Positions 16,462 to 19,187 of a DNA stretch of 64,000 nt are shown in pieces; position 1 is the stretch's first letter; each line of letters opens with the position of its first letter. This stretch comes from Pyrinomonadaceae bacterium (lineage in GTDB: Bacteria; Acidobacteriota; Blastocatellia; Pyrinomonadales; Pyrinomonadaceae), in contig DASVXV010000163.1 of assembly GCA_036392495.1 (NCBI GenBank), positions 2,951-66,950 of the forward strand, read 5' to 3'. The notes beneath the pieces were generated by a model, which was given only the letters and a program-made list of their open reading frames with translations, searched no databases and had not been told where the DNA came from. A program made the translations under genes and the position numbers.

Positions 16462-17031
16462 ATGGACCTAATGAAAGAGCTCGGCGGACTTTTGCAACAA
16501 TACGACGGGGCGCAGCCCGGCCAGGCGCCCGACACTGTTGACGACGACTTTGATCAGGTGGCGCAAGTGGCGCCGCAACCGGCCCTCGCCGACGGGCTGT
16601 CGGCCGCTTTTCGTTCCGACCAGACGCCGGAGTTCGGTCAGATGACCGCCAACCTCTTCGGCAATTCTGATCCGCAACAACGGGCGGGCCTGCTGAACAC
16701 GCTGCTCAAAAGCGTCGGTCCGGGGATTCTCTCGAAAATTCTGTCGGGCGGTGGCGCGGGCGGCGGCAGTAGCAGCGGGGGCGGAGGCGGTCTCTCGGAC
16801 CTCATCAACATCTTCAAAGGCGGCCAGCAACAGGTATCGCCCGAAGAGGCCGAACAGATTCCGCCGGAGACGGTCGGGCAGGTCGCCAACCAGGCAGAGA
16901 AGCATGACCCTTCGATCATTGACACGATCAGCAACTTCTACGCGGAGCATCCGACGCTCGTCAAAACGCTCGGCACGGCGGCTCTGACCATAGCCTTATC
17001 CAAGATCGCCCAGAAACAGTTCGGTAAGTAA
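16462..17031 (+). CDS. hypothetical protein with central Gly/Ser-rich linker
   Basis: 189-aa ORF with GC3-rich codon usage like its neighbours. No family recognised. Confidence 0.55.
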   Translation: MDLMKELGGLLQQYDGAQPGQAPDTVDDDFDQVAQVAPQPALADGLSAAFRSDQTPEFGQMTANLFGNSDPQQRAGLLNTLLKSVGPGILSKILSGGGAGGGSSSGGGGGLSDLINIFKGGQQQVSPEEAEQIPPETVGQVANQAEKHDPSIIDTISNFYAEHPTLVKTLGTAALTIALSKIAQKQFGK

Positions 17032-17035
17032 TAGC

Positions 17036-17114
17036 GCGTAAATCGTAAATCGTGAATCGTAAATGGATGAAGACCGCTTTTCTCTATTTACGATTCACGA
17101 TTTACGATTTACGC
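17036..17114. repeat. heptad-stem hairpin, family A, 29-bp perfect stem
   Basis: gcgtaaatcgtaaatcgtgaatcgtaaat / ggatgaagaccgcttttctct / exact reverse complement, between convergent genes. Confidence 0.95.
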
Positions 17115-17510
17115 ACTAAACGATTGCAGGTATTCAGTAAAGCGCGCGCGGTCTTCATCGCTGATTCTTGTGATGCGCGCGCCTATCAGGGTGCGCGCTC
17201 CCGCAGGCGAGCCGCCCTCGTTGATCTGCTCGTAGCGCGCGGGCGTGACCTCTAATTCGACCGGCCCGGCCGGAAGCGTCAACACGAGTTGCAGCGTATA
17301 TCCCTGCCCCAGGCTGGAGAGCATGCTCGCGTTTTTGGCCGCTACCACCAGGGCCACGCCCGTTTCGCTGATGTCGCGCGTGTAGCCCATCAGTGGCAGC
17401 GTATGCTCCGCGCCTCCGGAATCTATCTTCGTGACCATGAGCAGCACTCTGAACTCCACATTGACTCTGCGTCTCGGAGTTGCCCGCCGCTCTTCTGTAG
17501 GTTCCCACAT
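17109..17510 (-). CDS. PilZ domain protein
   Basis: RRRVN (RxxxR) and DISETGVAL (D/NxSxxG) c-di-GMP-binding motifs. Confidence 0.75.
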   Translation of the reverse strand: MWEPTEERRATPRRRVNVEFRVLLMVTKIDSGGAEHTLPLMGYTRDISETGVALVVAAKNASMLSSLGQGYTLQLVLTLPAGPVELEVTPARYEQINEGGSPAGARTLIGARITRISDEDRARFTEYLQSFSA

Positions 17511-17627
17511 TGGAGTTAAGCAGCGTTTGCCGCCGCTTGCGATGAATGGCTTAAGGAGCGAGGACGTGAAAGAAGCGAGGCATCAAAGGCGTTTTTGCGT
17601 TCAGGACCTTTGACGCCCGCCGGTTCT

Positions 17628-17669
17628 TAAAGAGAAAGGCCACTCACAGCATAATTATGAGCGGCCTTT
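17628..17669 (-). terminator. intrinsic terminator (minus strand)
   Basis: Minus strand reads AAAGGCCGCUCA-loop-UGAGUGGCCUUU followed by CUCUUUAAG. Confidence 0.55.
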
Positions 17670-17847
17670 CCGGTGTACTGCTGGGATTGCCCTGCGTGCC
17701 GTTCGTGCGCCATTTGACAGGCGCGACTCACGATACTACCGGACGAAAATCCTGATGCATCCTGACTCTCTATCCGGTCTTCAGGACTCAGCCACCTCAC
17801 TGTGATTAGAACTCATAATTTTTAGGATCACCTCCTTCCCAGTGTTG
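17628..17847 (-). ncRNA. candidate ~220-nt small RNA or leader-peptide transcript carrying a 13-nt perfect anti-16S-3'-end sequence
   Basis: Promoter TTGACG-17-TATTAT at 17882-17854. The RNA contains AAGGAGGUGAUCC (complement of 17825-17837) followed by an 11-codon mini-ORF (MSSNHSEVAES, 17816..17781) and ends at the terminator 17669-17628. Confidence 0.35.
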
Positions 17848-17853
17848 GGCCGC

Positions 17854-17882
17854 ATAATAGAGGACAATAAGTTGTGCGTCAA
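17854..17882 (-). promoter_or_regulatory. sigma70-like promoter (minus strand)
   Basis: TTGACG (17882-17877), 17-nt spacer, TATTAT (17859-17854), just downstream of the hutI stop. Confidence 0.5.
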
Positions 17883-17927
17883 GCATCTTTTTCGCCCATT
17901 ATCTTGCGGCTTTACTTTAAGCCTGCC

Positions 17928-19187
17928 TCAACGCCGAAACGCTACGCGCCCGCCGATGTAAACGGCATGCGCGTGCTCCACCCCGAAGAAGTAGGCGACC
18001 TCACGATAATCTGCACAATCATGGATGACGAAATCCGCGCGCTTGCCCGCTTCGAGCGACCCCACTTCATGCCCGCGCCCCAGACTGTAGGCGGCGTTGA
18101 CGGTCGCCGCCGTGAGCGCTTCGGCGGGCGTCATTCTCATGTGGGTCGAGGCGAGCGACAGGACCATAGGCATCGAGGGTGTGGGGCTGGAGCCGGGGTT
18201 GAAGTCCGTCGCGAGGACGACCGCGAGCCCAGCGTCAATCATCTCGCGTGCCGCGGGGTAGCGCGCGGAGCCGAGCGCATAGACGGAGCCGGGCAGAAGC
18301 ACAGGCTGCACGCCGGCCTTCTTCAAGGCGGCGATTCCCCCGGCGTCTGTGTGCTCCAGGTGGTCCGCAGTCGCGGCTTTCAGCTCCGCGGCCAAAAGGG
18401 CGCCGCCCGTCAGCGACAACTGATCGGCGTGAACGCGCAATCGCAATCCTGCTGATTGCGCGGCCGTCAGGATGCGCCGCGACTCCTCGACCGTAAAGAC
18501 GCGGTCTTCGCAGAAGACGTCCGCATACTCGGCCAGCCCCTCTTCGGCGATGCGAGGCAGCATCTCTTTGATGATGAGACTGATGTAATCTTCACTGCGC
18601 CCGCGATACTCTTCGGGGATGTCGTGCGCGCCCAGGAACGTCGGGACATAACGAAGCAGCGTTTCATCATTCAGCCTCTTAATCGCGCGCAGGATTTTCA
18701 GCTCGTCCTGGACCGTCAAGCCGTATCCGGATTTCGCCTCGATGGTCGTCGTGCCGCCTCTGAGAAACCAGCGGCTGTACCGCTTCCCAGCCTCGACCAG
18801 CTCTTCGAATGTTGCGGCGCGTGTGCGGCGGACAGTGGAGCGGATGCCGCCGCCGCGCGCGGCGATCTCCTGGTAGGTCGCGCCCAGAGCGCGCTGTTCG
18901 TACTCATCCGCGCGCGTGCCAGCGAAAACAGGGTGCGCGTGCGCGTCAACGAAGCCAGGCAGGACGGCGCGCCCGCCTGCCTCGACGATCTCGCTGCCCG
19001 TTTCGATGAGGGGCTCTATTTGACTTCGCGCGCCGACACGCTCGATACGCCCGTCGCGCACGAACATCGCCCCGTCTTCGATGATGGAAAGCTCGCTCAT
19101 CCACGCGCCCGTGCGCGGGCCTTCTCCCCCGTTTGCGAGCGTGACGAGTTGTGAGCAGCCGACGACGGCCAGAGTTTGGGACATCAT
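17928..19187 (-). CDS. hutI: imidazolonepropionase
   Basis: Amidohydrolase fold, [11 protein letters not shown], full-length HutI-like pattern (419 aa). Confidence 0.9.

Follow-up and report, generated by a model that had tools for sequence, protein, structure and literature searches.

The minus strand of the 64,000-nt stretch of Pyrinomonadaceae DNA analyzed here (hereafter, the window) carries, between a gene for a hutI-type amidohydrolase and a gene for a PilZ protein, a promoter, a long complement of the 16S rRNA tail, an 11-codon open reading frame and an intrinsic terminator. This arrangement raises the question of whether the locus is a gene of its own and, if so, what a ribosome would do on so short a frame. 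The original prediction had offered several roles, among them a ribosome-related small RNA and a regulatory 5′ element for the PilZ gene.

Promoter, terminator and the 16S-complementary block

Reading of the sequence located all four parts of this promoter-to-terminator RNA unit as described, on the minus strand. Its outline is as follows:

17877–17882, minus: −35 hexamer TTGACG (promoter scan; identical in 20 related loci)
17854–17859, minus: −10 hexamer TATTAT, with a spacer of 17 nt (promoter scan and related loci)
17629–17846, minus: predicted whole RNA, ~218 nt, its ends placed from the promoter and the terminator
17825–17840, minus: extended Shine-Dalgarno (SD) block, with 13 Watson-Crick pairs (17825–17837), or 16 nt with G-U, to the 16S 3′ tail
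17629–17670, minus: terminator hairpin (17634–17670, 16 bp) and short U-tract UCUUU (sequence; stem covariation in relatives)

The TTGACG/TATTAT pair at 17882–17854 was the sole promoter-like site that the scan returned in 16500–19000, and no antisense promoter was found at the unit in the same scan. Both hexamers are invariant in related loci, and the promoter is kept where the upstream genes differ, which supports the proposal of an independent unit. The RNA likely starts at A17846, 7 nt past the −10 hexamer. The predicted terminator is also present; its stem covaries freely in relatives, with compensatory changes, and it is missing from the list of the scan tool because its tail has just four U in eight. 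A 224-nt stretch gives a fold z-score of −4.3 against shuffles, and both covariance models introduced below (R1 and R2) match the predicted RNA over 17668–17846.

The promoter spacer (17860–17876, minus; GCACAAC TTA TTGTC) is nearly as conserved as the hexamers across the family, including loci L002–L020. It contains a short inverted repeat, ACAA...TTGT, which could be an operator.

The 13-mer AAGGAGGUGAUCC occupies 17837–17825 on the minus strand. The assembly of the window's own genome lacks the 3′ end of 16S rRNA, while the 16S genes in a complete genome of the same genus end in ...GGAUCACCUCCUUUCU. Against this tail the window RNA forms 13 Watson-Crick pairs, or 16 pairs including two G-U, which confirms the perfect 13-nt complement originally claimed. 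With the tail read in this one related genome taken as identical for all other members, and with G-U allowed, 144 of 154 family members have a pairing potential of 15–16 nt. Taken alone, the 13-mer is not beyond chance: the 12-mer complement occurs once in the 5.85-Mb genome, against ~0.7 occurrences expected by simple arithmetic, and 63 of 100 shuffled windows contain a match at two or fewer mismatches. Since the 13-mer is unremarkable in one genome, the case for the unit rests on conservation. The extended SD block is invariant across the family, whose wide set of loci was collected with the pattern described below. Complete genomes of relatives carry the 12-mer complement two to three times; in three of these genomes, the copies that were checked are located at the ends of 16S genes.

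Spread of the unit and its relation to Ms_IGR-5

By DNA search, 37 of 61 related genomes contain the unit (a count that takes in the unpublished genome G029), nearly always at one locus per genome; it is present in all 16 genomes of the same genus and in 30/36 of the family. In alignments of 20 and then 34 copies, the promoter is invariant, as is the 5′ block, which consists of ACAC, two to four bases and the extended SD. The mini-ORF has 11–12 codons and the same aligned end, reached via TGA, TAA or TAG. The middle domain is variable in sequence and length, and it is followed by a conserved 3′ box.

One genome per species was searched with a pattern that combines the 5′ block with the ORF box, which gave at least 120 loci. 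As the pattern fixes ~24 bases, the invariance of those bases in the wide set is built in, and so is a part of the R1 and R2 scores. Independent evidence comes from three items outside the requirements of the pattern: the Rfam match, the 3′ box and the geometry of the ORF. The listed loci include Actinomycetota (Streptomyces, Kitasatospora, Micromonospora, Nocardioides, Mycobacterium, Rhodococcus, Nocardia, and others) and Acidobacteriota (Pyrinomonadaceae, Blastocatellia, Terriglobia). In an even sample searched with strict filters, a match was found in 72 of 151 Actinomycetota (including the unpublished genomes G210, G227, G257, G291, G297, and G329), 71 of these 72 having a single copy, and, by a model that favors actinobacteria, in 15 of 151 Acidobacteriota.

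One listed locus (L060, genome G208) comes from an 8.4-Mb bin labelled Heliobacteriaceae, and its copy looks like those of class-level acidobacterial relatives; either the contig or the bin may be misassigned.

At gathering thresholds, Rfam gives no match at the locus. Below them, the Ms_IGR-5 family (RF02471) matches over the full model (1–184) with 22.9 bits, under the 45-bit gathering cut-off (E = 0.0018 when 301 nt are searched and 0.008 for the whole genome), and the alignment comprises precisely the blocks that the acidobacterial copies conserve. Model R2, trained on 54 actinobacterial copies and no others, has its sole match in the window at 17668–17846 (37.5 bits, E = 5.5e-9, with part of the score built in) and also matches all 27 acidobacterial loci tested; the mixed model R1 gives 44.3 bits against the window. 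Judged by these matches and by the shared layout, the window element is the acidobacterial branch of a two-phylum family, with Rfam Ms_IGR-5 as its actinobacterial branch. The acidobacterial copies score below the Rfam cut-off and are currently unannotated.

The two branches share the 5′ block (ACAC, spacer, extended SD), the GUGAGGUGGCUG box, an in-frame mini-ORF that ends five codons after GAG-GUG-GCU (E-V-A-x-x-stop), the 3′ box (AAU-CC loop, CAG-Y-CACC) and a terminal hairpin, and in both the unit is single-copy with no fixed neighbour. Apart from phylum, they differ in the ORF (11 codons from ATG in the window; 12 codons, often from TTG or GTG, in Ms_IGR-5) and in the length of the variable domain (~85 vs. 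10–40 nt), and the window element has one extra bulged base in helix P1 and a U-tract terminator. The Rfam consensus structure of Ms_IGR-5 contains neither helix P0 nor the long-range helix P1 described below.

Published ribosome profiling in M. abscessus and M. smegmatis places footprints on Ms_IGR-5 (PMC4974804). In Streptomyces the RNA is expressed as an sRNA unit (PMC8079986, PMC8780764), and in M. smegmatis it corresponds to ncMSMEG15794c (PMC10454040). The literature covered, to which the original Ms_IGR-5 paper does not belong, describes no function for Ms_IGR-5 or for the CC2171 RNA considered below, and it yielded nothing on the peptide strings or ncRv names. The Ms_IGR-5 model also gave sub-threshold matches in the control genomes of Caulobacter vibrioides and Thermus thermophilus, which are probably due to a 5′ super-SD block like that of CC2171.

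The reading frame and the RNA fold

The elements of the reading frame and of the fold are arranged in the window as follows, from 5′ to 3′ of the RNA:

17841–17844, minus: P0 5′ strand CACU, at the extreme 5′ end; partner 17798–17801
17827–17831, minus: H1 5′ strand GUGAU, the 3′ part of the extended SD; partner 17802–17806
17781–17816, minus: mini-ORF of 11 codons (MSSNHSEVAES) and TGA; start codon within the H1 loop
17782–17806, minus: central strand, comprising the 3′ strands of H1 and P0 and the 5′ strands of P1 (GGUGGCUG) and P1ext, including UG of the stop
17695–17780, minus: variable structured domain closed off by P1ext; length ~10–200 nt in the family
17672–17694, minus: 3′ box (P1ext 3′ strand, loop and P1 3′ strand), conserved in both phyla
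17689–17694, minus: P1ext 3′ strand
17681–17688, minus: conserved unpaired loop AAUCCCAG
17672–17680, minus: P1 3′ strand CAGUACACC

The ATG at 17816 lies 8 nt 3′ of the 16S-complementary block, and the stop TGA is at 17783–17781. Among the family matches listed, the stop falls exactly five codons after the GAG of the invariant GAG-GUG-GCU in 119 of 120, a position on which the collecting pattern made no demand. Each of the 142 unique 5′ domains offers an in-frame start downstream of the SD with no stop in between, 140 of them have the stop at +5 codons, and no conserved stop was found in their other two frames. The 120 listed loci start with ATG (67), TTG (42) or GTG (11) and end with TAG (99), TGA (14) or TAA (7); the length of the listed ORFs ranges from 11 to 20 codons, with the frame always kept. 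In Actinomycetota, the distance between the SD and the start shifts by single bases (10–12 nt) while nearly all ORFs have 12 codons, and such single-base shifts with the ORF length held are the signature of a translated frame. E-V-A are the sole invariant residues, the rest of the peptide being free in sequence and length. In relatives found by similarity, GAG-GUG-GCU shows no variation at wobble positions; the absence of synonymous change means that the constraint on these codons acts at the RNA level. By this comparative evidence, the reading frame is real and the peptide is not conserved. The 11-codon ORF of the original prediction is thus genuine, with frame, start and stop position conserved across the two phyla.

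A 57-codon GTG frame from 17800 (17627–17800, minus), running through the RNA and the terminator, was rejected: its stops scatter in relatives, and it is best left unannotated.

The usual stop codon in high-GC actinobacteria is UGA, against which the UAG in 99/120 of the listed family ORFs stands out; in many copies, this UAG is part of a GCUAGC palindrome paired with the 3′ box. Copies from Terriglobia (L048, L050, L058, L061, L066, L067, L073, L074, L089, L096, L118, L126, L132) have Ser/Cys-rich ORFs of 17–20 codons and, where measurable, a variable domain of ~110–200 nt. In most of these listed copies, the AAU-CC loop is directly preceded on its 5′ side by a conserved CACCUCUUGGUC segment similar to the anti-SD core.

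Support for the helices was assessed by anchor-based, alignment-free counts over 154 copies and by alignment-based counts. The former were used for P0, because its variable base falls in three different columns of the two-phylum MAFFT alignment. P0 pairs the 5′-terminal CAC-N with N′-GUG directly before the box. Its variable pair N:N′ is Watson-Crick in 135 of the 154 copies and occurs as all four types (U-A 53, G-C 52, C-G 21, A-U 9). In H1, the SD contributes its 3′ part and the codons that immediately precede N′ form the other strand, the start codon lying in the loop; the strands are clade-specific yet complementary (GUGAU/AUCAC, UGGUC/GACCA, GGUCC/GGAC, AUCCUGA/UCAGGAU). In P1, the ORF GGUGGCUG pairs with CAG-Y-(N)-CACC of the 3′ box; its 5′ strand never varies, and hence the support is limited to one-sided changes. 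In P1ext, the final two codons together with the initial bases of the stop pair with the bases immediately 5′ of the AAU-CC loop, with covariation at columns 68–245 of alignment A1 (U-G 15, G-C 13, A-U 6); covariation for the pairing of the 3′ box was likewise observed at columns 67–246. In a partner-shuffle test, true partners scored 4.95 vs. 3.79 ± 0.11 for shuffled ones, and in the actinobacterial alignment 93% of cells are paired vs. at most 47% after sliding of the partners. The loop on the 3′ strand (8–9 nt, AAU(U)CC and two to four bases) is conserved and unpaired in the consensus fold. The variable domain is subject to indels that are not multiples of three, and the 3′ box abuts the terminator.

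From the positions of these helices it follows that a single uninterrupted strand, which begins at the codon preceding the box and reaches the stop codon, pairs with both the 5′ end and the 3′ box. Comparative analysis thus identifies the 3′ half of the ORF as the central strand of the RNA fold. All 23 consensus pairs form in the window RNA, the consensus fold having −80.0 kcal/mol vs. −87.4 for the minimum free energy (MFE) structure. When the ORF end was blocked in folding, the number of 3′-box bases paired to the SD region rose from 28 to 273, in many members; this move of the 3′ box onto the SD suggests self-limiting loading.

Two other pairings were considered and rejected. In the MFE structure of the window RNA, the 5′ leader is paired with the 3′-box loop, an arrangement specific to the lineage and 7 kcal/mol better than the consensus, and a reading of the alignments of relatives gave no sign of consistent covariation for it. 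RNAalifold proposed a hairpin between the 5′ CACU and the GGUG of the SD; the fourth base covaries with the base before the box GUG and not with the invariant SD.

Proposed ribosome docking and alternative readings

The reading that we favor, with moderate confidence, is that of a free-standing, single-copy gene for a small, structured and translated RNA on which a 30S subunit docks and whose fold is unzipped by the translating ribosome. In the consensus fold, the 5′ end is locked in the short helix P0, the 5′ half of the SD stretch is open and its 3′ half held in the weak hairpin H1, and the last six codons with the stop form the continuous strand that pairs with the 5′ end (P0) and the 3′ box (P1, P1ext). 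A 30S subunit could then seed on the unpaired 5′ half of the SD stretch, zip through H1 and position the start codon; such seeding on the SD and opening of a hairpin by 30S has been proposed for the rreB RNA (PMC5711450). Translation of the 11 codons would unzip P0, P1 and P1ext in turn, and termination would occur exactly where the helices end. With the helices unzipped by the ribosome, the RNA would toggle between a closed state, in which its 5′ end and 3′ box are buried, and an open state occupied by the ribosome. Selection would then maintain the loading and passage of the ribosome rather than the peptide, and ribosome engagement, already suggested by the original prediction, would be the core of the design. 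Among the possible consequences, the stability of the RNA itself may come under ribosome-dependent control, either decay or protection; the 3′ box may be transiently exposed and, as in the constrained folds, tend to re-pair with the SD stretch; and sequestration of ribosomes may be another output.

The closest published design is that of the alphaproteobacterial rre small mRNAs, rreB and rreR. rreB is a stand-alone 165-nt RNA that has a promoter and a terminator to itself and whose genomic context is not fixed (Hahn et al., 2016; PMC5711450). The rre RNAs contain a 16–17-nt complement of the 16S tail, of which only the 5′ part is unpaired, and an ORF of 14–18 codons whose peptide is not conserved between clades (PMC5711450). 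rreB co-sediments with 30S, is weakly translated and is stabilized by removal of the start codon, and its overproduction has no effect on growth (PMC5711450). The window unit likewise is a stand-alone RNA with its own promoter and terminator, a 16S-tail complement and a short ORF with an unconserved peptide, the likeness being one of design, with no sequence similarity shown. The rre complement runs into a GTG start codon, whereas the ATG of the window lies downstream of its complement. Against the rre criterion of a complement of at least 16 nt, the window has 13 nt of Watson-Crick pairing and reaches 16 only with two G-U. Binding to 30S, weak translation and start-codon-dependent decay were measured for rreB, whereas the window unit is known from sequence.

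Two further systems are more distantly similar. CC2171 (RF01867), an sRNA of Caulobacter and Methylobacteriaceae whose expression has been confirmed (10.1101/2022.01.24.477521), shares a 5′-proximal GAAAGGAGGUGAUCC block and a terminal hairpin. Only these two parts align, its consensus having neither the GUGAGGUGGCUG box nor the 3′ box, and RF01867 scores 15.6 bits here, below its 75-bit gathering cut-off. The 5′ stabilizer STAB-SD of the Bacillus thuringiensis cry3A leader is a perfect SD of the GAAAGGAGG type near the 5′ end, with a proposed role in holding a 30S subunit and protecting the RNA from 5′ decay; it lies in a long mRNA leader and is not known to initiate translation. The perfect SD near the 5′ end is common to both, and the window unit adds a conserved ORF and a dedicated fold.

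Among the alternatives, a trans-acting base-pairing sRNA would take its seed from the AAU-CC loop or from the CACC at the end of the 3′ box, with translation of the mini-ORF gating the exposure of this seed. Many sRNAs have C-rich seeds that bind SD regions, both phyla conserve the loop, which the consensus fold leaves unpaired, and the 3′ box is freed in constrained folding when the ORF is occupied. Still, we consider this reading unlikely: only about five loop bases are conserved across clades, and no leader-loop covariation was seen on reading the alignments.

An improbable possibility is that the RNA is a decoy or store for ribosomes, holding 30S or 70S by full-length anti-SD pairing and releasing them on synthesis of the short peptide, as a translational counterpart of 6S RNA. 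Only one gene copy is present, and ribosomes far outnumber even overproduced rreB, whose overproduction does not slow growth (PMC5711450). These facts weigh against a store, even though the 15–16-nt pairing potential in 144/154 members, the strong consensus promoter, the presence of rreB in the 30S fraction (PMC5711450) and a peptide unconstrained save where the RNA fold needs its bases would all suit one. In a more specific version, to which we assign a low probability, an abundant start-site mimic would capture idle 30S or 70S via the whole anti-SD tail, and synthesis of a short "product peptide" would unzip the central strand and release the ribosome, much as product-RNA synthesis brings about release from 6S RNA.

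That the 11-residue peptide is the functional product, with the RNA structure merely tuning its synthesis, is suggested by the conserved frame, start and stop and by the invariant E-V-A. Yet the E-V-A bases lack synonymous change and are paired to the 3′ box, the remaining peptide varies freely over lengths of 11–20 residues, and the RreB and RreR peptides are unstructured (PMC5711450); a micropeptide gene therefore seems quite unlikely. A type I toxin mRNA with a 5′–3′ fold-back was rejected, as the peptides are hydrophilic and of 11–20 residues rather than hydrophobic membrane peptides of ~20–50 and the promoter scan returned no antisense promoter, and so was a tRNA or tmRNA, since ARAGORN finds no gene in 17400–18100.

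The gene neighbourhood bears on the remaining reading, in which the unit is a leader-peptide attenuator of the PilZ gene or a mere 3′ UTR of hutI. Both neighbours are on the strand of the unit, and the terminator lies 118 nt before the PilZ start. Among 34 related loci, hutI is upstream in 22 and PilZ is downstream in just 12, being directly adjacent in 10, all within the genus; elsewhere the downstream gene is different or convergent. In Actinomycetota the neighbours are unrelated to these and depend on the clade (ABC transporters, nitrobindin-like, GCV_T, NUDIX, and GNAT genes), and no conserved gene neighbour spanning clades was found. The 13-mer and the mini-ORF, whose conservation upstream of PilZ orthologs had been put forward as a check, are indeed conserved, but whatever the gene downstream. 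With no consistent downstream gene, no antiterminator alternative found, and the promoter conserved even at loci without hutI upstream, the attenuator and 3′ UTR readings are largely refuted by synteny and highly improbable. The changing neighbours indicate instead that the unit is a gene of its own.

The family thus represents a single-copy RNA gene common to two distant soil-dwelling phyla and found in roughly half of the Actinomycetota sampled, mycobacteria and streptomycetes among them, where Ms_IGR-5 has spent a decade in Rfam without a function. Its tiny frame is conserved for the sites at which the ribosome starts and stops and not for the encoded peptide, the frame being the strand that holds the RNA together. 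Whether bacteria possess, in this RNA, a ribosome-operated switch or a dedicated ribosome-docking RNA is now a testable question.
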